A stretch of 59,584 bases of DNA from Macrostomum lignano (lineage: Eukaryota), in assembly GCA_002269645.1 (NCBI GenBank), contig NIVC01001417.1, positions 1 through 59,584 on the forward strand, in the 5' to 3' direction. Below the pieces are notes generated by a model, which saw nothing but the letters and a program-made list of their open reading frames with translations, did not search any database and was not told the origin of the DNA. The translations under genes and the position numbers were made by a program. Below are positions 1-42,252 of this stretch, piece by piece. Within the stretch, counting starts at the first letter, position 1. The number at the start of each line of letters is the position of its first letter.

Positions 1-709
1 TTCCCCTTTTAGCGCAACACGTGAATTGTCATGATACTATTTTGGATCAAAAACTTGTCTATAATACAAGCGATCTGAAGCGGTACCGGAGCCATTCTCC
101 CACGGAAGAGGAGCGCTCCGAAGAGGAAGCCTTAGGAGGACTTCCTGATCTACCAAGTCAATCGAGACTCGGTCGAGTTGTTGGCGGTAAGCCTTATATT
201 GCGCCCGTTGTGTTAGAGACGTCTCGCTCAAGTCTATTGAGACTTGAGTCTAATTGAGTCTGTTGAGAACTCTTGAGTCTGTTTAGACTCCATTGGTTGC
301 AGTCTCCAGAAGGACTGCCCCTGATAGATCTTAGAGGACTATCAGTGGTTTCCGGAGCTATACCTAGAGTGCATAGAGGCACTGCTAGAAGAAGGAGGCT
401 TAATTTAGACGGCAGTTTGGCGCAGGGTACCCATTGTTGCTACGAGGCGCTCTGATTGGTCCTGACGCGAAGATACCGGCCGGAAGAACTTATCGGAAGT
501 ACAAGAGGAACCAGGACCAGAGCAACTGAAGAATCAAGGCGCCTGATCTACGAGATCTACTGACAAGTTCCTAGCGAGAACTACTCAAGAAATTCAAATC
601 CGGATTAAAGGTAATTGAATACCTTCGTTTGACTTACTGGTTGCCTAGCTGTTGAGCTAGAAGTGATTGTCCTTGATTATCGAAAAGTCGGGTAATAAGG
701 AACACATCA
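1..709 (+). repeat. 5' LTR (partial; about 153 bp lie left of the window)
   Basis: Base 1 aligns to 9725 of the 3' LTR; the shared sequence ends at ...GGTAATAAGGAACACATCA (709), followed by the PBS. Confidence 0.95.
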
Positions 710-711
710 AT

Positions 712-725
712 TGGTGATCTCGCCC
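712..725 (+). promoter_or_regulatory. Primer-binding site TGGTGATCTCGCCC (probably tRNA-Val)
   Basis: Starts with TGG 2 nt after the LTR CA end. Its complement GGGCGAGATCACCA resembles eukaryotic tRNA-Val 3' ends (from memory, not searched). Confidence 0.8.
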
Positions 726-1218
726 TCTCGGCACTACTCAAACCTTGAGCAATAGCCTGGCCAAGCTATTGTAAAGTGACGACAGAGCGACTTCATTAAT
801 TTTGCGCGCACGTGTTAGAGTTAACACTTTTTAAGTCCGTTACGTTTTGAAACTCGAGTAAAATTTGGTGTACAGGTTTGAGCACCTGTCAAATTTGAGT
901 ACAGTTTGAGCACGCGTGTTAAATTTTGTTTTAACGAGCTCGAGCAAGTGTGAGTTAAAATAAAACCGAAATTAAATTCATCGGTACACTGAAAACAAAC
1001 CAAAAATAAAAAGAATCGTCGACGCAAAACAAACAAAAAATAACTGAAACATTTTGCCGGCACAAAAACTAAAACAAAACCGAAATTAATTGAAACTTCG
1101 TGGAGAGCAGAGTTAATTGACAAAAGAGAGAGAGTCAAAGAAGAGAAGAAAGACTTTGCAAAGCAAGAAGACAAGTCCACTTCAACTTGAAGATACACTT
1201 TGCGGCGACGCCGCATAA

Positions 1219-2421
1219 GTGCGAAATCAGCAAGCGAACAGAACAAGTTCATTTGAGGACAACCAGTGGCAGCAAGCCACACCGCATCCGAGGCCAGCGA
1301 ATAACAAATCGACACCACAAGGCAATTCGTTACAGTCGAGGTTTATTCCGAGGCAAACACCACACTGGACGATCGCGTTACAAATCGATCCAGATCTTGA
1401 AACTACCGTTCTACCTCTATCAACAACATGGCGCGGCGCAAATCCAACGGTACACAGAGACATCAAAGAAACGGTCGGTACTTTCTCGATGGAGAAAGAT
1501 TTTAACACATTTGTCGACCATTTTGACCTGGTATGTAGGGAATACAACCTACAAAATCCAGAGAAGGCACAGCTGCTGCCACCTCTTCTCCAAGGTACTG
1601 CGCGAGAAATTTACGGCAAGCTGGATGCGGCAACACAGCAAAATTATCCAGCACTAATCATTCAACTGCGCGCGCATTTCAACCGTTGCGGCACAAACAG
1701 ATCAGTGCTGCTGCACAAGTTGCATAAAGAAGGATGCAAGCAACAGAATCCTTCCTCGCCTTTGTGGACGATAATCCGCCAGATAATTAAGGCACTGCAT
1801 CAGCCACCGCTGCAAGCTGCGGACAACCACCACTGGGAGCGGCAGAATTGGCCGCCAGAGAAAGACAACGATTGATGGATCGCGAACAAAACCTCATCCT
1901 GCACGTAATAAACAACGCACAGCGTCACTTCGGGATAGACTTTTGCTTTTGACGTGAAAATATCGAAACCGAAGAAGACCTTTTGCGGTGCGGAATGCAG
2001 TGGGAAGCCAGTGCCCATTAATGACGACAGGCAACAATGAAGTGCAGAAACTGACGCAGCAATTAAACAAGTTAATGCAGCACCAGACAGCTGCTATCGC
2101 CGAACAAAAAAGACGAAATGAACAAGCCTCAGCCAGATGTTACTACTGCGGACAAGAAGGACATTATCAGATTAATTGTCCTCATTGGTCAACAAGATAC
2201 GACAAGCCGCGACAGATATTCAACAATCAGAAGCCGCAGAAACCATGGCAGCAATATCAAAATCGCCAACAACAAGGCATAAGACGCTTCGGAAATGATA
2301 GACGCTTCGGAAATAATGACCGCTCCGGAAATGATGGCCGCTTCGGAAACGAAGGCCGCTTCAGAATAATGGCTACAGGCCACGCAACGTCAGATACACA
2401 CAAAGACAGCCGACGCAAGCA
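1219..2421 (+). CDS. gag: Gag (capsid plus CCHC nucleocapsid), broken by several 1-nt indels; true start not resolved
   Basis: Gypsy CA-like segment FSMEKDFNTFVDHFDLVCREYNLQNPEKAQLLPPLLQGTAREIYGKL; zinc knuckle CYYCGQEGHYQINC at 2138-2179; RFGND repeats after it. Base 1219 is a GTG from the ORF track, not an ATG. Confidence 0.85.
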
Positions 2422-3283
2422 ATGCCACGATACGCGAATGCCATCACGTACACACCGGAAAATGAACAGCAAGAACAGCAAGTGTTCACAATTGACGACT
2501 TGGAAATGGACTTCACAGTCCCGGAACTTGACATCAGCTTGATCGAAAAGAAGACGACGCACGAGGACAACACTGACAACACAGAAGAGACGAATGAAAC
2601 CGAAATGATCAAATTAAAAGAGACCACCGGAGACAGCAGAGAAAACAGGAAGAAAGTAAATCACAAGACAAGGGAGGAGGCGGAGAGCGACATCGGCAAC
2701 GAAGAAAAGATGAAACCGGCGAAGAAAACAACTATGAATCGACAACAGTGGATGACGACAAAACGAGCATGAAAGACAAAGAAATGAAAGAAGAAGAAGA
2801 ATGTAGAAGTTACGGCAACGACCACGACTGCGAGGTGCGTGATGACACGAACGACTACCAAGCCGAAAGAGGAATGCAGGAAGAACGAGAGCGGAGAATC
2901 TAAGTTCCGACAGCGATCAAGGCTACGAAATACAATGGAAAGATGAAGAAATGGAAAAAGAACAGGTGAAAGAAAAGCCGAGTTCCGACAGCGACGAATG
3001 CTACGAGATCCGATACAAACGAAATGGTGAAGCCTATATTCAAACGGTCGACTACAAGACAGAGAAAAGATACCAAACGCAATGGAGTGAAACAACGGAA
3101 ACATCGGAAGAAGCCGCAGACGAAGATAATGAAATAACCAAAAAGCAAAGCGAATCAGAAGCCTTCCGCCTGGATCAGCCAATGGAACAACCGAAAGAAT
3201 ATGATGCGGACATGGAAGATAACGAATGGCGATCGCAGCCAATGCCAGCAAGGACAACGGCAAAATCCAAGAAGTGGAAAAAC
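2422..3283 (+). CDS. Acidic low-complexity spacer between Gag NC and the Env signal sequence (frameshifted in assembly)
   Basis: E/D/T/K-rich reading frames chain across 2422-2772, about 2745-2900 and 2890-3283; duplicated motif SSDSDQGYEIQW / SSDSDECYEIRY. Confidence 0.65.
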
Positions 3284-5349
3284 TGGCTATTCTGGATCAT
3301 CGTGATACTACTGATAGCAGTAGTCGCCAAAGCAACGGCAACGGAAAAGCCAATGATTTGTCCAACGGATGCGCATATCCAACCGATGATCTACAAGATA
3401 CCAACCGACATCAAATGCAGTTACTTCAAGACAAACCAGACAAAACCAAAGAAGATTACACTCGATCTCTACAAGGCTAACATCAAGAAGCATCGACAAC
3501 ACGGGATAGTATGCTTCAGAGACAAGCACCTGGTGGAAAAAGTTTGGCGCGGACAATGGAACCGGATCCGATTTAAACAACATGAGCTACATGTGTCGCA
3601 CGCGGAATGCCTACAATGGAATCAAACACTATTTTCAAAGGATGGTGAACTGGAACCAGATGAGAAGGTCGGCAACGCACAGCTGTTCAGAACAAAGAAT
3701 TCAGCCAACGGTCGATATATTCACTTCTTCGGAAAATGGAAAGAATATATGGCACGCAACAGCTACTTGATCAGAAATATTCCATTCTACTACAATCCGT
3801 ACGAGAAAATGGAATCGTTACAGCTGCAACTAAGCGAATGTCGATACAGTGAAGGATGGTGTCCAACGCCGATTCTACGGAAGGAAGAACTACACAGTCT
3901 ACCACTGAGTCCAACATATCATCAAGACTATCGATGGCAGATTGAGCACAGAGCACAATCACACTATGAGGAACCGTACAAATCACGACAATATTTCTTC
4001 GCATGTGAAGTTGAGCCGGAAATTGACTGCAAGCTTCAAAAGTATCACACAGTGAAGGAGGACTACTGTCAAATACGTTTTTGGCAAAGTCAGGAGACTT
4101 GGCACTGACGTTTCAAAAGAAACCAGTCGAGCAAAAACTGAAATGCAAGGATACAGACAAGACACTATTCATCTCGGACAAGAATACCAGTCTACGTAAA
4201 GGATGAAGACAAACAAACCTTCTGGCAATCATCAATGGAACGTATCAGCAACAAACAGAGAGACAACGACGCGACATCGAACGTCCAAACTGGTGTCAAA
4301 CCGCTGTGTCAGCAAAGATAACGGCTTTGGATCACAATCTGCATAACCAGTTAAACCACTTGCATCGAACACTGGTTCAGCTAACTTGCAAAATGCACGC
4401 AATCAACTTAAATTATGCAGACAACTACTATGTCAACCCTACGATGACATTTCGCAAATCACGGAATGAGAACGTTTGGCATTCCAATATACGAGCATCT
4501 GTTGATATACAAGTGCACGCCGATACAGCACTTTAACATCTTGCCGTCGAACACGTCAACAACTTGCTACGACAAGCCAAGATTGAAGCGTTCTACGAAG
4601 GAAAAGATTCAGGATTCTTGGACACGGTACACAACATCATCGTTGGCACCGCAATACCGAGACCTTGCACCACGGCAGTAAACTACTATCAACTGGACAA
4701 TGCACTACACGTCATCAAAACAACTGGAACGACAGCAAACGTCACAGAACCGGAAGTAATCGTCGACGAAAACTACGACATGGAGGATTTGAAAATCCGA
4801 TTCAACAGAACGAAGTATACGCCATTCGCCGATATCCAACTTGACGAGATAACACCAGGATGGACGATCAACGACTTCTTGCAAGCGTTCATCACCCAAC
4901 GCAAGATGATTCACCAGCTGTTCACAAGAAAGGACAAAGGAACCGGGACAGGAAGATTTCCCGTCCTTGTTTCAATGGACAGCGCCATCAAATCATTTTG
5001 GACAAATAGCTTCTGGGAGCTGCTCAATGGAAGAGGCAGTCTCTATCAAGGATTCATCTTCTACGGTGCTTGCATTGTGTGGATTGTCACGGCAATCTTC
5101 ATCATTTCATCGATCGTACGGTGCTTCAGTCAAACTTGTCCAAGAGCTAAGAAGACAGTGAATGCCATAATGCAAAGAACGACAACGGAAAGCGACAACA
5201 GTTTAGAACTAACAGAAACTGCACATTGTGAGGTTCAAGGGCAACCGACACTAGCAACGCGGCTATATCCATCGATTCCGACAACACCAACGGCACCAAG
5301 GATACAACCACCCAACTATCAAGCAGAACAGCACGAGCCAAAATGGCCG
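3284..5349 (+). CDS. env: Envelope glycoprotein, class III fusogen (herpesvirus gB-like), with TM and cytoplasmic tail; several 1-nt frameshifts
   Basis: Hydrophobic signal WLFWIIVILLIAVVAKATA (3284-3340); Cys-containing ectodomain; RQRR furin site (4261-4272); gB-like helix/NPT, C-T-P, CYxxP and PC motifs; TM FIFYGACIVWIVTAIFIISSIV (5053-5118). Confidence 0.85.
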
Positions 5350-5690
5350 GAAAACTACGTCTGTACGCTACACGCCGAGATTGGCAAAGCAATGGCTCAG
5401 GTCATTGTCAACAACTTGCCATGTCGAGCACTACTGGATTCAGGCAGCTCGATCACAGTCATCTCGCAACAATTATGCAACAAGCTACGACTCGCGGTAC
5501 GACCAGCAGCAATCGCAGTTGCAGGAGCAGGAGGACATTCGCTCAACATCCTAGGAAAAGCAGATATACTTGAAAATTGCTAATAAACAGCTGACGGTCC
5601 CGACGTACATCATCGACAGACTACCAAACCAAGACGTCATCGTTGGAATCGACACGTTCAAACAGCTTCACTACCATTGACCTTCGACTT
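5350..5690 (+). CDS. pro: Aspartic protease, in frame with the Env C-terminus
   Basis: ALLDSGSSITVIS (DSG at 5437-5445), flap VAGAGGHSL, and DVIVGID in the adjacent frame after a 1-nt shift near 5570. Confidence 0.92.
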
Positions 5691-7650
5691 CAACAAGCAA
5701 ACGTTTAGGATCGACGCGGTGGAGCAACCGCTGATCAATCAGATTCGAGTACTACCGAAAGTAACTCTGCAGCAAGATGTCATCATCCAGCCTGAAAGCG
5801 CATGCTGGGTCAGAGCGAAAACGACCAGCGCGGCAGATGAAGCAATGATATTTGATCCACACAGGAGAGTCACGGCAAAACATCAAATCATGATGCCTAC
5901 GGCACTAGTGCTGGTTGCAAAGGATAAGCAACTGCCAGTACAAATCTTCAACCCGAACACAGAAACGGTTCATCTACGACAAGGAATGTGCATCGGTCAT
6001 CTCAACACCCAAGCATCGGTTATGCTGATTGAACAAGCGACTCCACGACTAACAGAGGAAGAATTTCAAAAGAAGATCAATTTGGATGACAGCCCGATTA
6101 CGGAACAGCAAAAGAGGAAAGTTCGACAGCTGTTGTGGAAGTACAACGAAGCCTTCTGCCATCATGATTACGACATCGGACGAGCCAAGGACATCAAACA
6201 GGAAATCAAACTTCTGCCGCACACGGAACCAATTCAGTGCAAGCCGTACCCGATCGCCAAGCATCTGCAACAACACTTTGACGAAATCATCGATAAAATG
6301 CTAAAGCACGGCATCATCAGCAAAGCTATTTCGGCTTACTCCTCACCGTGCCTACTGGTACAGAAGAAGGAGACAAACGAAAGACGACTCGTATGCGACT
6401 TCAGACTGTTGAACAAGTACATACCGACGGATCAGCAAAGCCTACCGAAGATCTCCGAACTACTAGCAAAGCTCAACACGGCAAAATTGTTCACGGTGTT
6501 CGACCTACGTCATGGATTTTGGCAAATTGAAATCGAGAAAGAGTCACGACAGTACACGGCTTTCAAAACCTACAATGGACAAGTATACGAGTACAATCGA
6601 TCGCCGATGGGACTTAGCAACAGCCCAGCAACGATGAGTCGACTAACAGCATACATGCTAGCAGGATGCACGAACCTGCTGCACTATGTCGACGACATTT
6701 TAGCCTACGGAGAGGATTTCGAGCGACTCTACGAAGCTACGGAGAAGGCCCTAGCGCTCATTCAACGCCAAGGTCTGAAGCTACAACCAACTAAATGCAA
6801 ATTCTTCCGAGACAACGTGCGTTACCTGGGACATCAGGTGACAGCCAAAGGAATCTCACCGGACCCAGACAACGTGGAAAAGGTGAAGAAGTTTCCTACG
6901 CCAACCAGTATAACGAAGGTCCAATCATTCCTTGGACTTGCGCAATACTTCAGGAAGTTCTTACCTAACTTCGCAAAGACAGCAAAGCCACTGTACGACC
7001 TGCTCAAGTTCGACAAATGGAAGCAAGACAACTGGACACAGAGACAACAGGAAAGTTTCGACGAAATCAAACGACAGCTGACATCAGACGCACTGCTACA
7101 GCATCCGGACTTCGACAAGCCCTTCATCATCGAGACAGACGCCTCAGGAACGGGACTCGGAGCAGTCCTACTACAGGAAACCGAGGACAAGAAGGAACGA
7201 CCTATTGCTTACGTCAGTCGAGCACTCAAACCAAATGAGACAAAGTGGTCAGCTACGGAACGAGAGCTACTAGGAGTCTTGTTCGCCCTGCGACAGTTTC
7301 ATTACTACATCTATGGTTCTCCAATACAGACGATAGTACGCACGGATCATGCACCATTGACCTACGTCGTAACTACAAAAGGACAGACCAACAACCGACT
7401 CATCAGGATGACACTCAAGATCCAGGATTACAACTACAAACTCGTCTACAAACCAGGAATTACCAACAAAGCCGCGGACGCCCTGTCAAGAGCCTATGAA
7501 GTCAACGCCATTCATCCAATCCCTAACATCAAGGAGTTGGTGGATGAAACCGAGCGCGACAACTTCTACCAAGCGGTTAAAGACGACGACAAGAACATCA
7601 AACTCAGCCCATGGAACGAAAATTCCTACGCAAGCAACGACAACACCTAA
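5677..7650 (+). CDS. pol: Pol: pre-RT domain, reverse transcriptase and RNase H
   Basis: SSPCLLVQKK, RLVCDFRLLN, DLRHGFWQI, PMGLSNSPA, HYVDDIL (6685-6696), YLGH; RNase H ETDASGTGLGAVL, ERELLGV, TDHAPL, ADALSR. Confidence 0.97.
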   Translation: MTFDFNKQTFRIDAVEQPLINQIRVLPKVTLQQDVIIQPESACWVRAKTTSAADEAMIFDPHRRVTAKHQIMMPTALVLVAKDKQLPVQIFNPNTETVHLRQGMCIGHLNTQASVMLIEQATPRLTEEEFQKKINLDDSPITEQQKRKVRQLLWKYNEAFCHHDYDIGRAKDIKQEIKLLPHTEPIQCKPYPIAKHLQQHFDEIIDKMLKHGIISKAISAYSSPCLLVQKKETNERRLVCDFRLLNKYIPTDQQSLPKISELLAKLNTAKLFTVFDLRHGFWQIEIEKESRQYTAFKTYNGQVYEYNRSPMGLSNSPATMSRLTAYMLAGCTNLLHYVDDILAYGEDFERLYEATEKALALIQRQGLKLQPTKCKFFRDNVRYLGHQVTAKGISPDPDNVEKVKKFPTPTSITKVQSFLGLAQYFRKFLPNFAKTAKPLYDLLKFDKWKQDNWTQRQQESFDEIKRQLTSDALLQHPDFDKPFIIETDASGTGLGAVLLQETEDKKERPIAYVSRALKPNETKWSATERELLGVLFALRQFHYYIYGSPIQTIVRTDHAPLTYVVTTKGQTNNRLIRMTLKIQDYNYKLVYKPGITNKAADALSRAYEVNAIHPIPNIKELVDETERDNFYQAVKDDDKNIKLSPWNENSYASNDNT

Positions 7651-8896
7651 CAATCAATAAGTCACGGCTCTACTGGATGAGCGACAATAAACCCAAGATC
7701 TACATACCATATTCGTTTCGGCAAGCAATTCTCAACGAGCTACACGACAACCCACTCGCTGGACACCTGTCGGCACAAAGACCATCGCGAGAGTGGAACA
7801 ATACTACTTTTGGCCAACTATGTACGGCGACATCAAGCAGTATTGCAACAACTGCCATTCATGTGCTGCATCAAAGACAGGACGACGACAGAAACCGCAG
7901 CTACAGTCCATTCCGAAGTCGACTACAATGGACTGTCTAAGCATCGACATCACCGGACCGCTACCACCGAGCTGTCTCCAGGGCATCGCCTACACCTACA
8001 TTCTAACCGCCTTGGATATCTTCTCGAAGTTTGCTATCGCCATACCGATACCGGACATCACAGCTCAGACAGTGGCAATGAGTTTCTTCAACGAAATCAT
8101 TTGCAAGTACGGCACGCCGAAGAACCTCACATCGGACAACGGATCGCAGTTTACATCGCAACTGTTTCAGCAAGTCGTAAGGATTCTCAACATTACGCAG
8201 ATCTACACATCGACCTACAATCCGAAGGCAAACATGGTTGAACGGTTTCACCGCAACCTGCACGAGATGATTACACATTTCGCGCACCAACAGCCGGAAG
8301 ACTGGATCATCTACCTGCAATCTGTAACAATGGCCTACAACAGCGCTATTCATCGATCAACGGACAATACGCCATTCTTCCTAATGTTTGGACGAGACTT
8401 CCAACCGCCGAATCTGCTCGCACAGCAATTGCTACCATCGCAGTACGTGGAAGTACCGACTTCCATTCAGAAATTCGTCACGCAACTACACCTCGCATGG
8501 AAGATCGCCAAGCACAACATTGACAACCAGGTGGCTCTGACCACCGGCAACGACGCGAGATCGACAACCCTGACGGCCGGCGACATCGTCTACCTACACT
8601 ACCCGCCACAGCAGACGCATAAACATGCACAGAAGTACAAAGGACCCTATCGAGTGGTCCAACTAACGTCACCAACAACGGCACGCCTGGCTAATGTACA
8701 AGATCCACATCAGCACCAGTTCTACGTACACATTCATCGACTAAAGAAGATCAACACTGACACAGCGACGTTTCTACCGACATTAGACAACGCTGATCGC
8801 ACGCGTTCAACGAACCGCCACATCGCGACGAAGCACGAGGAGACTCAAACGACAGATGTGAGCCAGCCACATGGCTACAACCTACGACCACGCTAG
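7611..8896 (+). CDS. int: Integrase (HHCC zinc domain, DDE core, GPY/F motif); one 1-nt frameshift near 7780
   Basis: HDNPLAGH...CNNCHSC; IDITGPL, SDNGSQF, VERFHRNL; KYKGPYRVV; C-terminal HGYNLRPR then TAG. Confidence 0.95.
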
Positions 8897-9016
8897 AGTT
8901 TAGAGAACAACCCCGTGTAGTGACCGGGATAAAGAATAGCACTACAGCTTCGCAAGCTTGTCGTAAAAGGCGACTAATCCGAGCGACACAAAGACAGCGA
9001 CAAATTGACGACAATT

Positions 9017-9391
9017 ATGGGCAACGCACTGTCAAAACAGGCGCCCCAGCCTCAGCAGCTATATGACTGCCCGATATGTTTAACTGATGACTTGGCTGTC
9101 AAGCCACCGACTATTTGCATCAATGGACATAAAGTTTGCGGACAATGTTTAAGTGATTCACACTATATTCAGCCCTGGCAGAATTGTCCCCTCTGTAGAG
9201 ATAGTTTGCGACAATGTGCCTATTGTTATTCTTGGCGCACGTTTCAATATTGTAACCATCAACATTTTATTTGCATGCACTGTTTGAAGCAAACCGCTAG
9301 TAGGGGCGTTATAGGATGCCCCTTATGTAATAGTATGCCGCGAGACTGCACGTTTCGAAAGTGGTGTCGGATCAAACCTGATGCCACTTGA
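9017..9391 (+). CDS. Accessory ORF: 124-aa tandem RING-finger protein with N-myristoylation motif
   Basis: ATG at 9017 gives MGNALSKQ (MGxxxS). Two C3HC4-like arrays: CPIC..CINGHKVCGQC..CPLC and CAYC..CNHQHFICMHC..CPLC. Uninterrupted ORF inside the element. Confidence 0.85.
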   Translation: MGNALSKQAPQPQQLYDCPICLTDDLAVKPPTICINGHKVCGQCLSDSHYIQPWQNCPLCRDSLRQCAYCYSWRTFQYCNHQHFICMHCLKQTASRGVIGCPLCNSMPRDCTFRKWCRIKPDAT

Positions 9392-9556
9392 TGTCTACGC
9401 GATATTCGAGTTTTGACCGCAATATGTACTGAAAAGTTTTTAGAGTTTTGACCAAACCCTCGCTTCACTAGACGCGCACAAAATCAATTGTTTATTTCCT
9501 ATATTAACTGATCACCACAGAATTTTATTGTTAAAACTCGGGACGAGTTTTTTCGT

Positions 9557-9568
9557 AAAAAAGGGAGA
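9557..9568 (+). promoter_or_regulatory. Polypurine tract AAAAAAGGGAGA
   Basis: Purine run ending 3 nt before the TG that starts the 3' LTR at 9572. Confidence 0.85.
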
Positions 9569-9571
9569 TTT

Positions 9572-10435
9572 TGTAGAGTGTTCTACCTCCCGTTAAAAAA
9601 GGAAAAAAGAAGATAATCGTATAATACTACTATAAGTAAGTAAGTACACGCATGTGCGCCTAAGCTTTGAATGAATCACGCTACCAGAAAAAGATGTTAC
9701 CAGAATAATACGCCATGAGCCATTTTCCCCTTTTAGCGCAACACGTGAATTGTCATGATACTATTTTGGATCAAAAACTTGTCTATAAATACAAGCGATC
9801 TGAAGCGGTACCGGAGCCATTCTCCCCACGGAAGAGGAGCGCTCCGAAGAGGAAGCCTTAGGAGGACTTCCTGATCTACCAAGTCAATCGAGACTCGGTC
9901 GAGTTGTTGCGGTAAGCCTTCCTTATTTGCGCCCGTTGTGTTAGAGACGTCTCGCTCAAGTCTATTGAGACTTGAGTCTAATTGAGTCTGTTGAGACTCT
10001 TGAGTCTGTTTAGACTCCATTGGTTGCAGTCTCCAGAAGGACTGCCCCTGATAGATCTTAGAGGACTATCAGTGGTTTCCGGAGCTATACCTAGAGTGCA
10101 TAGAGGCACTGCTAGAAGAAGGAGGCTTAATTTAGACCGCAGTTTGGCGCAGGGTACCCATTGTTGCTACGAGGCCTCTGATTGGTCCTGACGGAAGATA
10201 CCGGCCGGAAGAACTTATCGGAAGTACAAGAGGAACCAGGACCAGAGCAACTGAAGAATCAAGGCGCCTGATCTACGAGATCTACTGACAAGTTCCTAGC
10301 GAGAACTACTCAAGAAATTCAAATCCGGATTAAAGGTAATTGAATACCTTCGTTTGACTTACTGGGTTGCCTAGCTGTTGAGCTAGAAGTGAGTGTTCTT
10401 TGATTACCAAAAGGCGGGTAATAAGGAACACATCA
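9572..10435 (+). repeat. 3' LTR, 864 bp, TG...CA
   Basis: Starts TGTAGAGTGTTC and ends GAACACATCA; TATAAATA at 9784-9791; repeats 1-709. Confidence 0.93.
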
Positions 10436-10600
10436 TCTGCATCACTCTCTGCATCACTCTCTGCCTCACTCTCTGCATCACTCTCTGCATCACTCTCTGC
10501 ATCACCCTCTGCATCACTCTCTGCATCACTCTCTGCATCACTCTCTGCATCACCATCTGTCTCCCTTTTCCTCACCTTCTGCCTCACCCTCTGCCTCCCC
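10433..10600. repeat. 12-bp minisatellite (GCATCACTCTCT)n directly flanking the 3' LTR
   Basis: Visible tandem copies. Confidence 0.9.
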
Positions 10601-11139
10601 TTTGCCTCACCCTTTGGTTCCAAGACCCAAAATATAATACAACATGCTTCCCGAAAAATTTACCCCCATTTAAACTAGAGGGCAGCTGACCCCCCCCTGC
10701 TTCTCTTTTATCTCTCTCCCCTCTCTCTCTCCTTCATCATCCTACCCCTTACCCCTACCCGTCCTTTGTTACTCCTTCAGCAATTACCTCAGTTCAGCTC
10801 TATGCCTCAGCTTCCTCCATTCAGATAATTTTTAAAGAAGATAATTTCAGCTTTTCAAACTGAAATTAAAGTCATTTCACTACTAGCCATAGCTACTACT
10901 GAAAGTAAGCAAATCGAACTACGCAGTTTTTCTCGACAAAGACTGTCAGAAAGAGTATTAGTACAAAAACGAACTCTAATAATAGATGAGAAAAACAAGA
11001 ATCAAGCGACCGGGGCTTCTTGCACGTGACGAATGAAGTTTGTATTATATAACGACGCAGAAGAGCAAAATATTCATTGGGCTTCCTATAAAATAGTCAT
11101 GAATGTTCGGATTGCAAAAAGCTCTGCCTTTTCTCCTCC

Positions 11140-11650
11140 CATATTACTCTCTCGTTCCCCTCTCGCTCGCCTCTTGTTCCCCTCTCGTTCCCCTCTCGTT
11201 CCCCTCTCGTTCCCCTCTCGTTCCCCTCTTGTTCCCCTCTCGTTCCCCTCTCGTTCCCCTCTCGCTCGCCTCTTGTTCCCCTCTCGTTCCCCTCTCGTTC
11301 CCCTCTCGTTCCCCTCTCGCTCGCCTCTTGTTCCCCTCTCGTTCCCCTCTCGTTCCCCTCTCGTTCCCCTCTCGTTCCCCTCTCGTTCCCCTCTCGTTCC
11401 CCTCTCGTTCCCCTCTCGTTCCCCTTCTTGATCCCCACTCGTTCCCCTCTCGTTCCCCTCTCGCTCCTCTTTCGCTTCCCTCCCGCTCCCCTCTCGCTCC
11501 CCTCTCATTCCCTTCTTGTTCCCCTCCCGTTCCCCTCTCATTCCCCTCCCGTTCCCCTCTCATTCCCCTCTCGTTCCCCTCTCATTCCCCTCCCGTTCCC
11601 CTCTCGCTCCCATCTCGTCCCCCTCTCATTCCCTTCCTGTTCTCCCGTTC
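11140..11650. repeat. Pyrimidine-rich 11-bp repeat (CTCGTTCCCCT)n
   Basis: Visible tandem copies. Confidence 0.9.
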
Positions 11651-11700
11651 CCCCAGCCTGCCTCTCTTTCTCTCCCAGCGGCAAGCCGCAGTTGTCTCAC

Positions 11701-11749
11701 CAGTTTTGGGCTCCAAATCGGCTGGTTTCACCTGCATCGGGCGAGTCAT
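11701..11749 (-). CDS. CELF: CELF/Bruno-family RNA-binding protein, coding exon 3 (49 bp)
   Basis: cag|ATG...MTRPMQVKPADLEPKT-G|gtgaga; matches the CELF MNRPIQVKPAD linker after RRM1. Confidence 0.9.
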
Positions 11750-12294
11750 CTGCGGGCGGAGCAAAGTGGGGATGGTTAATAGAGGGATAAACTGGGAATA
11801 AAATTGAGGGGGGGAATAATTTGGGATTTCAAAGGCAAATTATGCTAGCGCAAGCTGGTGCCCGACTGAAGTCGGTCCTGCAGTAATCAGTGAACACGTT
11901 GCAGCTTGTCGCACCTGATAAGCATACAGCCCCCCAAGGCGGGGCACTTCGCATAATGAAAGCTCAAAGGGAATTTTATCCCATCTGTTTTTGGGATTAG
12001 CTTTTATTCGAAATTAAGATAAAAAACAGCCAGCTGCGAAGATGATCAACTTGAAATTCGCGTCAAAGGAGACGGGCGAAAGAGGCGGCTGGTCGGCTTT
12101 AATTATTTTATGCCCCCCCGTGTCTTCACGGCTGTCGTAGCGAGCAAAAGATGAGATGGTCTTTTATTAATCCGTTATCGATCTCACTCGGAAATTAGAT
12201 TTCAGTGTGCGATAGCGATAAATAAAATTTGATAGAGATTGATGCAAATTAATTAAGATTGGTTGAGACTGATAAAAAATTGATTGCGATCGAT

Positions 12295-13800
12295 CGAGAT
12301 TGATAAACATTGATAGACATTGATAGAAACTGATAGACATTGATAGAAATTGATAGACATTGATAGAAATTGATAGACATTGATAGACATTGATAGACAT
12401 TGATAGACATTGATAGAAATTGATAGACATTGATAGACATTGATAGACATTGATAGAAATTGATAGACATTGATAGAAATTGATAGACATTGATAGAAAT
12501 TGATAGACATTGATAGACATTGATAGAAATTGATAGAAATTGATAGACATTGATAGACATTGATAGACATTGATAGACATTGATAGACATTGATAGACAT
12601 TGATAGACATTGATAGACATTGATAAAAATTGATAGACATTGATAGAGATTGATAGAAATTGGTTGAGATTGATAGAGATTGATAGAGATTGATGGAGAT
12701 TGATAGTCATTGGTAGAGATTGATAGAGATTGATAGTCATTGGTAGAGATTGATGGAGATTGATAGAGATTGATGGAGATTGATAGTCATTGGTAGAGAT
12801 TGATAGAGATTGATAGTCATTGGTACAGATTGGTAGAGATTGATATAGATTGATAGAGATTGATGGAGATTGATAGTCATTGGTAGAGATTGCTATATAT
12901 TGATAGAGATTGATGGAAATTGATAGTCATTGGTAGAGATTGCTATATATTGATAGAGATTGATGAAGACTGATAGTCATTGGTAGAGATTGATATAGAT
13001 TGATAGAGATTGATGGAGATTGATAGAGATTGATAGAGATGGATTGAAATTGATAGAGATTGATAGAGATTGATAGAGATTGATGGATATTGATAGTCAT
13101 TGTTAGAGATTGATATAGATTGATAGAGATTGATGGAGATTGATAGTCATTGGTAGAGATTGATAGAGATTGATAGTCATTGGTACAGATTGGTAGAGAT
13201 TGATATAGATTGATAGAGATTGATGGAGATTGATAGTCATTGGTAGAGATTGCTATATATTGATAGAGATTGATGGAGACTGATAGTCATTGGTAGAGAT
13301 TGATATAGATTGATAGAGATTGATGGAGATTGATAGAGATTGATAGAGATGGATTGAAATTGATAGAGATTGATAGAGATTGATAGAGATTGATGGAGAT
13401 TGATAGTCATTGTTAGAGATTGATATAGATTGATAGAGATTGATGGAGATTGATAGTCATTGATAGAGATTGATAGACATTGATAGAAATTGGTAGAGAT
13501 TGATAGAGATTGATAGAGATTGGTTGAGATTGATAGAGATTGATAGAGATTGATAGAGATTGGTTGAGATTGATAGAGATTGATAGAGATTGATAGAGAT
13601 TGATAGTGATTGGTAGAGATTGATAGAGATTGATAGAGATTGATAGAGATTGAAAGAGATTGATAGAGATTGATAGAGATTGATAGTGATTGATAGAGAT
13701 TGATAGAGATTGATAGAGATTGATAGAGATTGATAGTGATTGATAGAGATTGATAGAGATTGATAGTGATTGGTAGAGATTGATAGAGATTGATAGAGAT
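12295..13800. repeat. 10-bp minisatellite (TGATAGACAT / TGATAGAGAT)n in CELF intron 2
   Basis: Visible tandem copies with variant blocks. Confidence 0.95.
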
Positions 13801-13843
13801 TGACAGTCAAGATGGGCAGCTGCAGGTAGTCAACTCCACTCAC

Positions 13844-13926
13844 CCCCGGCAGGGTGCACTGGTCGTGCAGCACCGACTGACAGCGGATAGCGCTGTCCTT
13901 CTGGGCGAACGTCAGGAATGCGCAGC
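13844..13926 (-). CDS. CELF: CELF coding exon 2 (83 bp, RRM1 RNP1)
   Basis: cag|GC TGC...GCAFLTFAQKDSAIRCQSVLHDQCTLPG|gtgagt; phase matches exons 1 and 3. Confidence 0.92.
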
Positions 13927-13959
13927 CTGCGGGCGGATCGGAGCGGCATAAATTTCTTG

Positions 13960-15220
13960 CACACCCCTGCCTGCCCCTCTTGCACACACCTGCCTGCCCT
14001 CTTGCACACCCCTGCCTACCCTTTTGCACACCCCTGCCTGCCCCTCTTGCACACCCCTGCCTGCCCTCTTGCACACCCCTGCCTGCCCTTTTGCACACAC
14101 CTGCCTGCCCTTTTGCACACACCTGCCTGCCCTTTTGCACACCCCTGCCTACCCGTCTTGCACACCCCTGCCTACCCTTTTGCACACCCCTGCCTGCCCC
14201 TCTTGCACACCCCTGCCTGCCCTCTTGCATATCCCTGCCTGCCCTCTTGCACACCCTGCCTACCCTTTTGCACACCCCTGCCTACCCCTCTTGCACACCC
14301 CTGCCTGCCATCTTGCACATCCCTGCCTACCCTCTTGCACACCCCTGCCTGCCCCTCTTGCACACCCCTGCCTGCCCTCTTGCACATCCCTGCCTACCCT
14401 CTTGCACACCCCTGCCTGCCCCTCTTGCACACCCCTGCCTGCCCCTCTTGCACACCCCTGCCTGCCCCTCTTGCACATCCCTGCCTACCCTTTTGCACAC
14501 CCCTGCCTGTCCTCTTGCACACCCCTGCCTGCCCCTCTTGCACACCCCTGCCTGCCCCTCTTGCACACCCCTGCCTGCCCCTCTTGCACACCCCTGCCTG
14601 CCCTCTTGCACACCCCTGCCTGCTGCCCTCTTGCACACCCCTGCCTACCCTTTTGCACACCCCTGCCTGTCCTCTTGCACACCCCTGCCTGCCTTCTTGC
14701 ACACCCCTGCCTGCCCTCTTGCACATCCCTGCCTGCCCCTCTTGCACACCCCTGCCTACCCTCTTGCACAACCCTGCCTACCCCTCTTGCACACCCCTGC
14801 CTGCCCTTTTGCACACCCCTGCCTGCCCTCTTGCACATCCCTGCCTGCCCCTCTTGCACACCCCTGCCTACCCTTTTGCACACCCCTGCCTGTCCTCTTG
14901 CACATCCCTGACTGCCCCTCTTGCACACCCCTGCCTGCCCTCTTGCACATCCCTGACTGCCCCTTTTGCACACCCCTGCCTACCCTCTTGCACAGCCCTG
15001 CCTACCCCTCTTGCACACCCCTGCCTGCTGCCCTCTTGCACACCCCTGCCTGCATTCTTGCACACCCCTGCCTGCCCCTCTTGCACACCCCTGCCTGCCC
15101 TCTTGCACACCCCTGCCTGCCCCTCTTGCACACCCCTGCCTGCCCTCTTGCACACCCCTGCCTGCCCTTTTGCACACCCCTGCCTGCCCTTTTGCACACC
15201 CCTGCCTACCCTCTTGCACA
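13960..15220. repeat. 22/23-bp minisatellite (TTGCACACCCCTGCCTGCCCTC)n
   Basis: Visible tandem copies. Confidence 0.95.
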
Positions 15221-15324
15221 CCTGTGGAGATCTACCTGGTTCCAGAATGTTTCGGAGCGAGTTAATAAAGCTCATGTTTTATTAAAAATTGAATATTATC
15301 GACTAACAATTGAATTGTAGAGGT

Positions 15325-15490
15325 TTGCCATCCCGCAGCGGGATTAACGTAGGGAGCCTCCAGGAGCGGGGATCGAGTCCCACGCGCCGACTCTCCCACC
15401 TGAATAGCCTATGTGGGACAGCGGAAATGGCCTCTTAATTAAAATCCCGCCCCAACTCTGTCACCTCCGCGCAAAATTAATAAAGCAAGC
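15325..15490 (+). mobile_element. Possible tRNA-derived SINE
   Basis: B-box-like GGATCGAGTCCC about 40 nt after a weak A-box-like GCAGCGG, with an AATAAAG-type tail; no TSD confirmed. Confidence 0.3.
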
Positions 15491-15884
15491 TTGATGAGGC
15501 TCAGCGGAGGCTGGGGGCGGAAAAGGGAGTTGGAGCGCTTTTTTGACTGGAGCGGGAGGGGCTGTTATTTCCCTTTAATTCCCTCCGGATTTGGCATTCA
15601 ACACGTGCCTCACGGATGCTGCGCGAAATGAGTAGCCTAAAATCCCCGCCCAATTCGAATCCCTCCCAGGAAGATGTCTCGTGTTTCTCCCTTGCCTCTG
15701 CCAGCCTCGGCACGGGGGCCCGCATCCGATGCAGCTCTCGAGCCCCCCTGCCCTCTGCCACCAGACGATTGCGCACCTGGGCCCCCGCTCCGTTCTCAGG
15801 AAAATTGGCCATTAAGTTTCTTTTGAAACTGTGTTGGAGAAAGCAGATCAGTTGCTGCTTCTGCCTTGCTGCTGCATAAAAGCC

Positions 15885-16200
15885 GTCCTCCCGTCACCCG
15901 CCCTCAGCTCCTCCCGTCACCCGCCCTCAGCTCCTCCCGTCATCCGCCCTAAGCTCCTCCCGTCACCCTCCCTCAGCTCCTCCCGTCACCCGCCCTCAGC
16001 TCCTCCCGTCACCCGCCCTCAGCTCCTCCCGTCACCCGCCCTCAGCTCCTCTCGTCACCCGCCCTCAGCTCCTCCCGTCATCCGCCCTCAGCTCCTCCCG
16101 TCACCCGCCCTCAGCTCCTCCCGTCACCCGCCCTCAGCTCCTCCCGTCACCCACCCTCAGCTCCTCCCGTCACCCGCCCTCAGCTCCACCCATCACCAGC
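15885..16200. repeat. 23-bp repeat (CCGTCACCCGCCCTCAGCTCCTC)n
   Basis: Visible tandem copies. Confidence 0.9.
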
Positions 16201-16839
16201 CACCTGTCCTCTCCCCCCTCCCTCACCTGTCTCACACCCCTTTTCATGCCAATATACCCTCCCACGACATACTGCAGCAGCCCTGTATACCAAACACGCT
16301 TACTCTTCCTATATCATTCAAAGCTGATGCAGTGGAGAGACTGGGGAAGGAATGAAGATCCTAAGTGCCTCTGTAATAACTAAAGGTTTCCTCACGGGAC
16401 ATGCGTGCGAGCAGAGGAGCAGAGGGTCCGGTCAGGAAGATTTGAGTAGAGATCCGATTCGGGGTCAAGGGCGAGAGCTGTGTAAAAAACTGCATGGAGC
16501 CCCAGAGATTATCCACTAAATTTATTGTATTAAAAGTCCTCGCGATCCCCTTTTAAAAACTCTTTCATAAATAGGCAGCCCCCACCCAGTCGTGCATTCA
16601 ATTTCTCCCTTTTTCTCCCTTTGTATCTACCCGAAACGTTTCTGGGGATTTGGAGCGAAACTGCATGCAAGACAATACAGCGGCTGAATCAGGACTTCAG
16701 TCTGCTGCAGTCACGGATGCGAGTTGCCGACCAAGCTGGGGACTCTGACTTTCATCCTCAAATCCCAAGGCCGTGCTCCTAGCATGCTCGCCCAAAAACC
16801 CATCATTTACAGCTGCTGACTCAGTCCGCCTCTCATCAC

Positions 16840-19800
16840 ATCTCTCACCCTACCTCACCGAATCACGCTACCGCTCTCACCCTACCTCACTGCGTCACTA
16901 CTCTACCGCTCTCACCCTACCTCACCGAATCACGCTACCGCTCTCACCCTACCTCACCAAATTACGCTACCGCTCTTACCCTACCTCACCGAATCACGCT
17001 ACCGCTCTCACCCTACCTCAACAAATTACGCTACCGCTCTTACCCTACCTCACCGAATCACGCTACCGCTCTCACCCTACCTCACCAAATTACGCTACCG
17101 CTCTTACCCTACCTCACCGAATCACGCTACCGCTCTTACCCTACCTCACCGAATCACGCTACCGCTCTCACCCTACCTCACTGCGTCACTCTACCGCTCT
17201 CACCCTACCTCACTGCGTCACGCCATCGCTCTCACCCTACCTCACCGAATCACGCTATCGCTCTCACCCTACCTCACTGCGTCACTACTCTACCGCTCTC
17301 ACCCTACCTCACCGAATCACGCTACCGCTCTCACCCTACCTCACCAAATTACGCTACCGCTCTTACCCTACCTCACCAAATCGCGCTACCGCTCTCACCC
17401 TACCTCACCAAATTACGCTACCGCTCTTACCCTACCTCACCGAATCACGCTACCGCTCTCACCCTACCTCACCGAATCACGCTACCGCTCTCACCCTACC
17501 TCACTGCGTCACTCTACCGCTCTCACCCTACCTCACTGCGTCACGCCACCGCTCTCACCCTACCTCACCGAATCACGCTATCGCTCTCACCCTACCTCAC
17601 CAAATTACGCTACCGCTCTTACCCTACCTCACCGAATCACGCTACCGCTCTCACCCTACCTCACCGAATCACGCTACCGCTCTCACCCTACCTCACTGCG
17701 TCACTACTCTACCGCTCTCACCCTACCTCACCGAATCACGCTACCGCTCTCACCCTACCTCACCAAATTACGCTACCGCTCTTACCCTACCTCACCGAAT
17801 CACGCTACCGCTCTCACCCTACCTCACCAAATTACGCTACCGCTCTTACCCTACCTCACCGAATCACGCTACCGCTCTTACCCTACCTCACCGAATCACG
17901 CTACCGCTCTCACCCTACCTCACTGCGTCACTCTATCGCTCTCACCCTACCTCACCGAATCACGCTACCGCTCTTACCCTACCTCACCTAATCACGCTAC
18001 CGCTCTCACCCTACCTCACCGAATCACGCTACCGCTCTTACCCTACCTCACCGAATCACGCTACCGCTCTCACCCTACCTCACCAAATCACGCTACCGCT
18101 CTTACCCTACCTCACCGAATCACGCTACCGCTCTCACCCTACCTCACCGAATCACGCCACCGCTCTCACCCTACCTCACCGAATCACGCTACCGCTCTCA
18201 CCCTACCTCACCGAATCACGCTACCGCTCTCACCCTACCTCACTGCGTCACTCTACCACTCTCACCCTACCTCACTGCGTCACGCCATCGCTCTCACCCT
18301 ACCTCACCGAATCACGCTATCGCTCTCACCCTACCTCACTGCGTCACTACTCTACCGCTCTCACCCTACCTCACCGAATCACGCTACCGCTCTCACCCTA
18401 CCTCACCAAATTACGCTACCGCTCTTACCCTACCTCACCAAATCGCGCTACCGCTCTCACCCTACCTCACCAAATTACGCTACCGCTCTCACCCTACCTC
18501 ACCGAATCACGCTACCGCTCTCACCCTACCTCACTGCGTCACTCTACCGCTCTCACCCTACCTCACCGAATCACGCTACCGCTCTTTCCCTACCTCACCG
18601 AATCACGCTACCGCTCTCACCCTACCTCACCAAATCACGCTACCGCTCTTACCCTACCTCACCGAATCACGCAACCGCTGTCACCCTACCTCACCGAATC
18701 ACGCTATCGCTCTCACCCTACCTCACCGAATCACGCTACCGCTCTCACCCTACCTCACCAAATCACGCTACCGCTCTCACTCTACCTCACCGAATCACGC
18801 TACCGCTCTCACCCTACCTCACCGAATCACGCTACCGCTCTCACCTTACCTCACCGAATCACGCTACCGCTCTCACCCTACCTCACCGAATCACGCTACC
18901 GCTCTCACCCTACCTCACCGAATCACGCCACCGCTCTCACCCTACCTCACCGAATCACGCTACCGCTCTTACCCTACCTCACCGAATCACGCTACCGCTC
19001 TCACCCTACCTCACCAAATCACGCTACCGCTCTTACCCTACCTCACCGAATCACGCAACCGCTGTCACCCTACCTCACCGAATCACGCGACCGCTCTCAC
19101 CCTACCTCACCGAATCACGCTACCGCTCTTACCCTACCTCACCTAATCACGCTACCGCTCTCACCCTACCTCACCGAATCACGCTACCGCTCTCACTCTA
19201 CCTCACCGAATCACGCTACCGCTCTCACCCTACCTCACCGAATCACGCTACCGCTCTCACCCTACCTCACCAAATCACGCTACCGCTCTCACTCTACCTC
19301 ACCGAATCACGCTACCGCTCTCACCCTACCTCACCGAATCACGCCACCGCTCTCACCCTACCTCACCGAATCACGCTATCGCTCTCACCCTACCTCACCA
19401 AATCACGCTACCGCTCTCACCCTACCTCATTGCATCACTCTACCACTCTCACCCTACCTCACTGCGTCACTCTACCACTCTCACCCTACCTCACTGCGTC
19501 ACGCCATCGCTCTCACCCTACCTCACCGAATCACGCTATCGCTCTCACCCTACCTCACTGCGTCACTACTCTACCGCTCTCACCCTACCTCACCGAATCA
19601 CGCTACCGCTCTCACCCTACCTCACCAAATTACGCTACCGCTCTTACCCTACCTCACCAAATCGCGCTACCGCTCTCACCCTACCTCACCAAATTACGCT
19701 ACCGCTCTCACCCTACCTCACCGAATCACGCTACCGCTCTCACCCTACCTCACTGCGTCACTCTACCGCTCTCACCCTACCTCACCGAATCACGCTACCG

Positions 19801-20770
19801 CTCTTTCCCTACCTCACCGAATCACGCTACCGCTCTCACCCTACCTCACCAAATCACGCTACCGCTCTTACCCTACCTCACCGAATCACGCAACCGCTGT
19901 CACCCTACCTCACCGAATCACGCTATCGCTCTCACCCTACCTCACCGAATCACGCTACCGCTCTTACCCTACCTCACCTAATCACGCTACCGCTCTCACC
20001 CTACCTCACCAAATCACGCTACCGCTCTCACTCTACCTCACCGAATCACGCTACCGCTCTCACCCTACCTCACCGAATCACGCTACCGCTCTCACCTTAC
20101 CTCACCGAATCACGCTACCGCTCTCACCCTACCTCACCGAATCACGCTACCGCTCTCACCCTACCTCACCGAATCACGCCACCGCTCTCACCCTACCTCA
20201 CCGAATCACGCTACCGCTCTTACCCTACCTCACCGAATCACGCTACCGCTCTCACCCTACCTCACCAAATCACGCTACCGCTCTTACCCTACCTCACCGA
20301 ATCACGCAACCGCTGTCACCCTACCTCACCGAATCACGCGACCGCTCTCACCCTACCTCACCGAATCACGCTACCGCTCTTACCCTACCTCACCTAATCA
20401 CGCTACCGCTCTCACCCTACCTCACCGAATCACGCTACCGCTCTCACTCTACCTCACCGAATCACGCTACCGCTCTCACCCTACCTCACCGAATCACGCT
20501 ACCGCTCTCACCCTACCTCACCAAATCACGCTACCGCTCTCACTCTACCTCACCGAATCACGCTACCGCTCTCACCCTACCTCACCGAATCACGCCACCG
20601 CTCTCACCCTACCTCACCGAATCACGCTATCGCTCTCACCCTACCTCACCAAATCACGCTACCGCTCTCACCCTACCTCATTGCATCACTCTACCACTCT
20701 CACCCTACCTCACTGCGTCACTCTACCACTCTCACCCTACCTCACTGCGTCACTCTACCACTCTCACCCT
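16840..20770. repeat. 32-bp minisatellite (CTCTCACCCTACCTCACCGAATCACGCTACCG)n with higher-order duplication
   Basis: The 32-aa period in translation equals 3 x 32 nt; identical variant blocks at 19430 and 20681. Confidence 0.95.
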
Positions 20771-20891
20771 ACCACTCAAACTATACGTTTCCTATTTCTT
20801 CACTTTACTCCTCATACTCTGCCTAGCTCCGAAATTTTATCCTTCTCATTCTACATCAATCTTTACACAGCATCCGACAGCATCGCCTCAC

Positions 20892-21075
20892 CCTTGTGTA
20901 CTCCAGTCAGGCGGTCTCTGAGCACTGTCAGGTCCAGAATCTGTCCAAACTTCTCAAACATCGGGCGCAGCGACTCGGCGTCCATGCTGCGGGGTATCTG
21001 GCCAACGAAAAGCTTCATCAGCCTGGCAGGAGGCTGGGCCGGCACGAGCTCTTGGTTGTGACAGCTTGACAGCAT
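20892..21075 (-). CDS. CELF: CELF coding exon 1 (RRM1 N-terminal half)
   Basis: MLSS...[43 protein letters not shown]|gtgagg (RNP2 LFVGQI). Confidence 0.92.
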
Positions 21076-41553: not shown

Positions 41554-42252
41554 TCCCTTAAAGCCATTTTAAGGGAAGTTCAAAGATTCGCTCCCGATTT
41601 CTCACCCGCGAGATTCGTTCTCGACTATGAGCAGCCAGCCTGGAAGGCGGTTCAATGCATCTTTCCGCAGGCTGAAGTGCAGGGCTGCAATTTCCACTGG
41701 ACCCAGGCAGTCTGGCGAAAAGTTCAGAACGTGGGTCTGCAGCAGTCCTATCGTGATGATGATGGCACAGAACGGTTCGTCCGGAAGTTGATGGCACTGC
41801 CGTACCTGCCACGTGACGAGATTAACGAGGTGTTTGAAAGCCTCCGAGCTTCGCAAGCTGCTCAGGTAGACGAAAGGCTGCAGGAACTATGTGAGTACAT
41901 TGGCAGTACATGGTTGGGCGAAGGCAGCAACTGGAAAGCGGATGACATTTGCGTGTTTGGTCAGCCCATCAGGACCAACAACGACCTGGAGGGCTGGCAC
42001 TATCGCCTAAACCGTAAAGCTGGGAGGCGCAACCTCCAGTTCTATCTATTGCTGCAACTGCTCCACGAGGAAGCTATCCTGGTGCCACTCCAGGCTCACC
42101 TGCTGTCCAGAGGGGTACTGCGTCGAGAGCAGTGGCAAGGGTACCACACAGTTCAGTCTCGTTTATTTCGCTACTGGGCGGAATATGAACAAAGTACTCG
42201 AAGCACTCGGCGGCTGCTTAAATCCTGTGGTCGTCTCTTTAATCCGAAGTGA
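41554..42252 (+). pseudogene. MULE transposase C-terminal exon (N-terminal exons absent)
   Basis: Open from a tttag acceptor: ...FVLDYEQPAWKAVQCIFPQAEVQGCNFHWTQA...RTNNDLEGWH; first catalytic D motif not present. Confidence 0.88.

Follow-up and report, generated by a model that had tools for sequence, protein, structure and literature searches.

A known type of flatworm Gag-Env-Pol errantivirus carries, after its integrase gene, a cassette of tandem double-RING genes that is kept by selection and is apparently undescribed. The cassette is represented in Macrostomum lignano by a 124-codon open reading frame (ORF1) in the window, the 59,584-nucleotide stretch of DNA analysed here, and in fuller form by related copies elsewhere in the genome. 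We propose, at about an even chance of being right, that the RING cassette encodes trans-acting E3-type accessory proteins directed against host restriction, anchored to membranes in one clade. The RING proteins probably tag host proteins for destruction rather than aid the budding of particles.

The retrovirus-like element occupies positions 1-10436 of the window, and ORF1 sits near its 3' end. The element is composed of the following features:

1-709, forward strand: 5' LTR, corresponding to LTR positions 153-863; its start is missing, as the contig begins inside it
~186 and ~610, forward strand: candidate splice donors in the 5' LTR
712-723, forward strand: primer-binding site (PBS), the reverse complement of which equals the PBS entry of a catalogued errantivirus (supplement of PMC13524379, available part)
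1428-3280, forward strand: gag with an acidic linker, starting MARR; broken into several frames in the window copy
2138-2179, forward strand: zinc knuckle in gag (zf-CCHC, E 4.7e-5)
3284-5118, forward strand: class III-type env within the polyprotein, with a signal/anchor segment (3284-3328) and a transmembrane segment (5053-5118) predicted from hydropathy
5266-5319, forward strand: late-domain cluster (YPxI, PTAP, PPxY) in the Env cytoplasmic tail, before the protease
5428-8896, forward strand: protease, reverse transcriptase, RNase H and integrase, from Pfam matches; frameshifted in the window copy
8912-8977, forward strand: conserved non-coding block with a short hairpin, a candidate acceptor AG (8946-8947) and a second hairpin
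9017-9391, forward strand: RING ORF1, truncated form, 124 codons, starting MGNALS; RING1 spans residues 18-60 (then Arg61) and RING2 residues 67-104, both C3HC4
9392-9520, forward strand: decayed remnant of the ORF1 C-terminal helical domain, from alignment with sister copies; ends at a deletion
9557-9571, forward strand: polypurine tract (PPT), from sequence
9573-10436, forward strand: 3' LTR, 864 nt, with a TATA box at 9784 and donor-like sites at 9911 and 10335

The protease-reverse transcriptase-RNase H-integrase order, the LTRs, the PBS and the PPT are together those of a Ty3/gypsy errantivirus. Over 716 columns, the two LTRs share 97.5% identity, with 6 mismatches and 12 gap positions. 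Frameshifts interrupt gag, env and pol in the window and may be either real or assembly errors; in a related copy, the three form a single continuous frame of 2480 aa. The closest named polyprotein record, P0006 from M. lignano, is 84-99% identical to the window over five segments. The window element is an already known type of flatworm Gag-Env-Pol errantivirus. The catalogue entry Platyhelminthes_Rhabditophora_Mlig_errantivirus_2 has the same PBS, an LTR of 864 nt and an LTR spacing of 9727, which is that of the short-tailed form described below, and shares the GAG-ENV-POL order and a class III (HSV/gB-type) env (PMC13524379, available part); the match is one of listed LTR length, LTR spacing and PBS. 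Tandem-repeat arrays (periods of 10, 12 and 32 nt, among others) succeed one another at positions 10407-21000, starting right at the end of the 3' LTR. Farther along the window, a possible DNA transposon is marked at positions 40648-44573 by long inverted repeats of 463 nt (100% complementary), 153 nt and 77 nt.

The initial annotation described an intact 124-aa ORF with two RING-like arrays between the integrase stop and the PPT. Its position and open frame are borne out: ORF1 starts 120 nt past the integrase stop and ends upstream of the PPT and 3' LTR. The arrays also hold, since residue shuffles give even one such C3HC4 pattern in only 1 of 20,000 trials. Pfam matches of the window ORF to RING, Sina_RING and C3HC4 profiles have E-values of 7e-4 to 2e-3, all under the curated cut-offs. 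The ORF is not intact, however, as sister copies extend to 222 aa and the stop in the window is premature. A deletion of more than 1 kb behind the decayed remnant also takes out a second, paralogous RING gene (ORF2). The tail of the window element matches that of L067, a decayed copy whose LTR differs, and the part up to 9381 shares 98.8% identity with a long copy, so that the short form looks recombinant. Both RINGs and the anchor motif remain in the 124-aa form, but the helical domain, which is under selection, is gone, so the short protein probably has reduced function or is a passenger.

It is possible, at only slightly less than an even chance, that the window ORF is a dying pseudogene, into which a clean RING half was lately copied by recombination, and that the cassette functions only in long copies. 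The two matches that make the short form look recombinant are what such a history would leave, and Gly2 is gone in 2 of 22 short copies and zinc ligands in single copies. Nevertheless, 15 of these 22 retain the same 124-aa frame, and the short tail is present in contigs of three of four sequencing runs, the RNA status of which is only guessed. The pseudogene reading covers the window form alone and is compatible with trans-acting E3 proteins in the family as a whole. The window ORF is the least informative form, and it is the 222-aa gene and its paralogs that are worth studying instead.

The protein of the window ORF has 151 matches in its own genome (150 of 215 candidates scored), which agrees with an element-borne gene present across copies and not with a one-off host fragment. 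Among the best 30 copies, 22 are short-tailed (15 of 124 aa, six of 144 aa and one of 113 aa) and eight are long-tailed (six of 222 aa, one of 202 aa and one of 141 aa). Long copies hold ORF2, a gene of 210 aa, ahead of the PPT. Full genes of ~200-222 aa encode RING1, RING2 and a five-helix bundle. The cassette behind the integrase comprises two to three intact genes per element, in more distant families as well, with up to five homologous segments in one unit. In a tree of the RING genes, a first-position clade separates from a downstream clade (99/99), and both are old. The examined loci adjoin the integrase, PPT or LTR of the window element family, with the exception of a few context-less fragments (e.g. 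L061/L101), and no intron-bearing host paralog was seen among them. A captured host gene fragment was considered and rejected, given purifying selection and the element linkage, or fragment status, of the loci examined.

About 20 further matches, the subfamily of L046 and L047, cover residues 1-90 only; their ORF1 is broken near codon 71 by an internal stop, and both copies examined are without ORF2. Since 22 of the best 30 copies are short-tailed and this subfamily has a broken ORF1, the cassette is dispensable in cis. An amplified, young, non-autonomous derivative, represented by L044 on G000:C301 and five loci like it, has lost most of pol and the second half of env, but both its RING genes are open. 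Dense nested copies of several subfamilies, all on one strand, occur at L031-L037 (G000:C2121:1-70000) and on C1130 and C87. The L031-L037 arrays hold many long-cassette copies, and could be a self-insertion hotspot or a locus resembling a piRNA cluster.

A word-indexed search with the 222-aa protein for outside relatives found nothing. A full HMM search recovered the whole architecture in one named M. lignano gene model and otherwise only in Logan proteins (P0008-P0010 at full length, P0011 and P0021 in part, and P0158 in addition). Proteins from other sequencing data fall into both the first-position and the downstream clades, on long branches. No full-length RING-RING-helical match outside the family exists among 1.84 billion representatives, a metagenome scan with P0008 found no locus, and in the ESM Atlas the RING protein resembles only generic viral RING clusters (at most 0.91).

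The RING genes are under purifying selection, and the C-terminal half lost by the window is as constrained as the RINGs. Pairwise dN/dS of ORF1 is 0.10-0.30 in 10 of 12 pairs (two saturated), that of its C-terminal half 0.10-0.41 in seven of eight (one saturated), and that of the downstream genes 0.14-0.53 in 10 of 11 (one saturated), with P<0.001 in 10 of 11. The integrase control gave 0.04-0.12 in four of five pairs (one saturated). These values are whole-gene averages over pairs that share branches and are not independent; they lie well below 1, which speaks against neutral evolution of the family, and give no hint of the fast adaptive evolution that is common in genes of conflict. The 22 short copies have a pN/pS of 0.40, yet several of their shared synonymous variants are also found in long copies. 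Between the window and L048, synonymous divergence is 1.8 in ORF1 and 0.53 in integrase, a gap that suggests swapping of cassettes between subfamilies.

An alignment of 22 ORFs has little or no variation at the 16 zinc-ligand positions, at the Arg after RING1 and at the Pro of a WP motif. In all 57 sequences that were parsed out of 73 tried, Arg comes right after the final Cys of RING1, at what we take to be the linchpin position of RING E3s; only one of the 57 has Arg or Lys at the equivalent site of RING2. A linchpin-position Arg together with E2-binding residues is a mark of RING-HC E3s, to which RING1 conforms by its Arg. By analogy, RING1 would be the E2-activating domain, and RING2 is probably structural or substrate-binding. 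The best PDB matches of the family profile are RING E3s, namely RING1B (E 2e-6) and TRIM21.

The AlphaFold model of the 222-aa protein (pLDDT 88.8, pTM 0.79) has an all-helical C-terminal domain and supports the two predicted cross-brace RINGs, as it is confident and both arrays align to RING structures. A Foldseek search with the RING protein gave no match at E<=0.001, and fold searches indicate generic RING likeness only. The helical domain has middling, non-specific structural matches, with a best Z of 6.7. The C-terminal matches, including the N-domain of ATP-synthase delta and TAP (Z 5-6.7), were rejected as common helical arrangements.

The SINA/SIAH family is defined by a SINA RING followed by zinc fingers and a TRAF-like substrate domain. 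The SINA-like signature reported for the window ORF corresponds to a SIAH likeness confined to RING1, which scores 20.1 bits against the Sina_RING cut-off of 29.3 in Pfam; with the C-terminal domain modelled as all-helical as well, membership of the SINA/SIAH family does not follow. As to the suggested E3 ligase, RING1 has the sequence marks of one and may act as such, while the likeness in fold extends to RINGs in general. RING domains can also be non-catalytic scaffolds. Viral and cellular RING-HC E3s (ICP0, baculovirus PE38, RING1B, TRIM21, SIAH and RNF125) share with the family the C3HC4 spacing, the Arg after the last Cys and the fold; they differ in overall layout, since the search described above found no protein beyond the family that matches the RING-RING-helical bundle over its full length.

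We hypothesize that the RING proteins are produced from subgenomic RNAs, in which an LTR donor would be joined to the acceptor before ORF1 or to downstream AG/ATG sites. RING1 would bind and activate E2~ubiquitin, and RING2 together with the helical bundle would choose the substrate. Acting in trans, the proteins would target restriction factors of the host, such as silencing or antiviral proteins, and in the clade of the window a myristoyl anchor may place the ligase at membranes. Trans action would explain the amplification of subfamilies with a shortened or broken cassette, but loss in cis also fits a dispensable regulatory or tissue-specific gene.

The conserved 65-nt block ahead of ORF1 is near-invariant across subfamilies whose ORF1 proteins share ~40% identity, and exceeds the flanking genes in conservation. 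It includes the motif YACAG/CT at 8940-8950, which is invariant in 9/9 aligned copies from several subfamilies. Given this candidate acceptor, the earlier statement that no polypyrimidine acceptor precedes the ORF was too strong. A GTAAG-type donor is located 109-127 nt downstream of the TATA box in four of five LTR types. AG directly precedes the ATG at 16 of 26 downstream-gene starts, which are related and not independent, versus 11 of 152 background ATGs. The public gene model P0007, a prediction, links LTR exons to a downstream RING gene. The conserved LTR donors and acceptors suggest spliced subgenomic RNAs. It is also possible that spliced-leader (SL) trans-splicing takes place at the AG/ATG sites, where the gaps measure 16-73 nt; the available text of PMC8629364 gives SL trans-splicing for 30% of M. 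lignano genes and an operon spacing of ~100 bp.

Contigs of four of 24 sequencing runs, with their RNA status guessed, cover the long-copy element. None of the joints listed for these contigs against a long copy runs from a donor in the LTR to the acceptor of a RING gene. Two contigs of run X1 follow the reference as far as the second donor and switch precisely there to dissimilar sequence. A DNA search in which 40 of 97 candidates were scored found no processed (spliced) genomic copies starting at the acceptor. One mini-element (L097, G000:C530:281000-284100) consists of an LTR, the leader, the 3' half of a RING gene, the PPT and an LTR, with the LTRs identical over 968 nt; it was rejected as a spliced copy and is a deletion derivative.

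The RING proteins could instead be zinc-binding products of a spliced RNA that regulate the element's own RNA, in the manner of Rev or CERV, by promoting nuclear export or translation of unspliced RNA, perhaps via the block at 8912-8977; we consider this unlikely. An element with donors and acceptors must export intron-containing RNA, for which Cer1 of C. elegans uses a protein made from a spliced mRNA (PMC10309623, available text), and both the conservation of the block beyond that of the ORFs and the loss of the cassette in cis accord with a trans-acting regulator. However, a myristoylation motif under selection in one clade speaks against a nuclear role, a single RNA target would hardly account for two to five diverged paralogs, and the Arg of RING1 is invariant. 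The block has no covariation and no Rfam match, and may be a mere acceptor.

The place of ORF1 was initially called the usual env position, which is correct for the site, but an env of the element's own lies between gag and protease. It is because env is located there that the site after the integrase is free. In the homologous env region of three of three related copies, PF24664 is matched at E 1e-5 to 5e-5, below the cut-off. Compared by ESM Atlas features, the env region reaches 0.96 to clusters of Monjiviricetes/rhabdovirus (mononegavirus-type) glycoproteins. These matches indicate a putative class III fusion glycoprotein between gag and pol. Another element, more distant (L106 and L108, G000:C1405:258800-267300), bears an env that is 24% identical; toward its 3' end it holds an open frame of 266 codons that is of another, non-RING kind.

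Among 12 distinct Env tail segments, YPx[LI] is present in 12, PTAP in 11 and PPxY in eight, and the motifs are kept across subfamilies (e.g. L045, L054). The late-domain cluster of the Env tail is likely a budding signal outside Gag. The reported absence of an MG start from Gag is confirmed by its MARR start, and the hydrophobic anchor of Env, which comes next after Gag in the polyprotein, could tether Gag to the membrane. Placed in the Env tail of one polyprotein, such late domains suggest how a Gag that is not myristoylated can bud.

The cassette might encode E3 ligases for the element's own Gag or Env tail, serving ESCRT-dependent budding or the tuning of Env levels, a role that we regard as quite unlikely. 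The E3 marks of RING1, the membrane anchor of one clade and the ESCRT-type late domains would suit it. Against it, PPxY recruits host Nedd4-like ligases (PMC3497041, available text) and is already present in eight of the 12 tail segments, the anchor is absent from most of the family, and the L044-type derivative, although young, keeps both RING ORFs open with half of env and most of pol gone.

In the clade of the window, distinct ORF1 starts have Gly2 in 11/12, Ser6 in 12/12, encoded by all four TCN codons, and Lys or Arg7 in 12/12. The myristoylation-type start noted at the outset thus belongs to an MGxxxS/T(K) motif that selection has maintained in this clade. The MG start is present in nine of 16 distinct ORF1 starts, all in one ORF1 clade, and in none of 26 starts of downstream paralogs, one of which is a mis-called internal Met. 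PTAP, PPxY and YPx[LI] late domains are found in 0/69 distinct RING ORFs, and the RING proteins have no transmembrane segment. The suggestion of a matrix or budding cofactor is not supported, in view of the single MG clade, the RING ORFs without late domains and the loss of part or most of the cassette from two amplified subfamilies.

Arenavirus Z proteins have Gly2, one RING and almost always a late domain at the C-terminus (PMC3497041, available text). They resemble the family as small zinc-binding proteins with Gly2, which here occurs in one clade only. Their single RING, universal Gly2 and late domain set them apart from the family, whose members have a second RING and a helical domain, mostly lack Gly2 and are all free of late domains. 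A Z-like matrix role is unlikely, and a myristoylated protein that joins the capsid to the membrane and drives budding as Z does is very improbable: the small size of the window form, the Gly2 and Ser6 conserved in its clade next to a Gag without an MG start, and an alignment of RING2 to Lassa Z (Z 4.3, rank 48, level with many unrelated RINGs) are set against a real gene of 222 aa with two RINGs and a helical domain, an MG missing from other ORF1 clades and every downstream gene, RING ORFs free of late domains, an Env anchor that could itself tether Gag, and losses from amplified subfamilies that are not expected of a structural protein.

With trans-acting E3-type proteins as the preferred reading, we speculate, as a rather doubtful extension, that the element is an invertebrate 'complex retrovirus'. 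An expanding, swappable array of ligases of a new RING-RING-helical type on a Gag-Env-Pol element would be expressed from nested spliced or (operon-like) leader-trans-spliced RNAs, each ligase acting against a different host defence protein, with one branch that newly gained a myristoyl anchor and with cheater subfamilies that are devoid of the cassette and rely on the protein made by others.

No account of RING genes after integrase turned up in the openly accessible literature searched, which includes the two papers that catalogue these flatworm elements. In the available version of PMC13524379, which lists Mlig_errantivirus_2, 'RING' occurs 0 times in the main text, and 'RING finger', 'C3HC4', 'ubiquitin' and 'extra ORF' are absent from the supplement (seven files). 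The main text of PMC12801592, as available, has neither 'RING' nor 'env', and its supplement contains RING-annotated transcripts with no link to the element.

Three groups of elements offer partial parallels in the text available for each. The giant gypsy elements Burro/GYPSM1 of planarians share the flatworm host and the in-frame env between gag and pol, and also encode domains of ubiquitination and apoptosis (MATH/TRAF, BIR, SUMO-like and an AIR1 'RING Zn-finger' motif); these however lie in or upstream of a 4,900-aa polyprotein, and no separate post-integrase tandem double-RING genes are described there (PMC6431247). LTR elements of rotifers have ORF3 accessory genes after pol, typically expressed from spliced messages, but the terms RING and ubiquitin are absent from the paper (PMC5408684). 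The sORF2 of the insect MDG1 group is an accessory ORF after pol, and four of six sORF2 proteins have an MGxxxS/T motif; it is a transmembrane fusogen, unlike the RING proteins (PMC11952523).

The host, M. lignano, is a stem-cell-rich flatworm open to transgenesis, and its natural series of long, short and broken cassettes permits a comparison of helpers and cheaters. Vertebrate retroviruses counter host restriction by hijacking the ubiquitin ligases of the host. Were an LTR element to encode several such ligases itself, it would provide a direct handle on the proteins that such a flatworm uses against retroelements.
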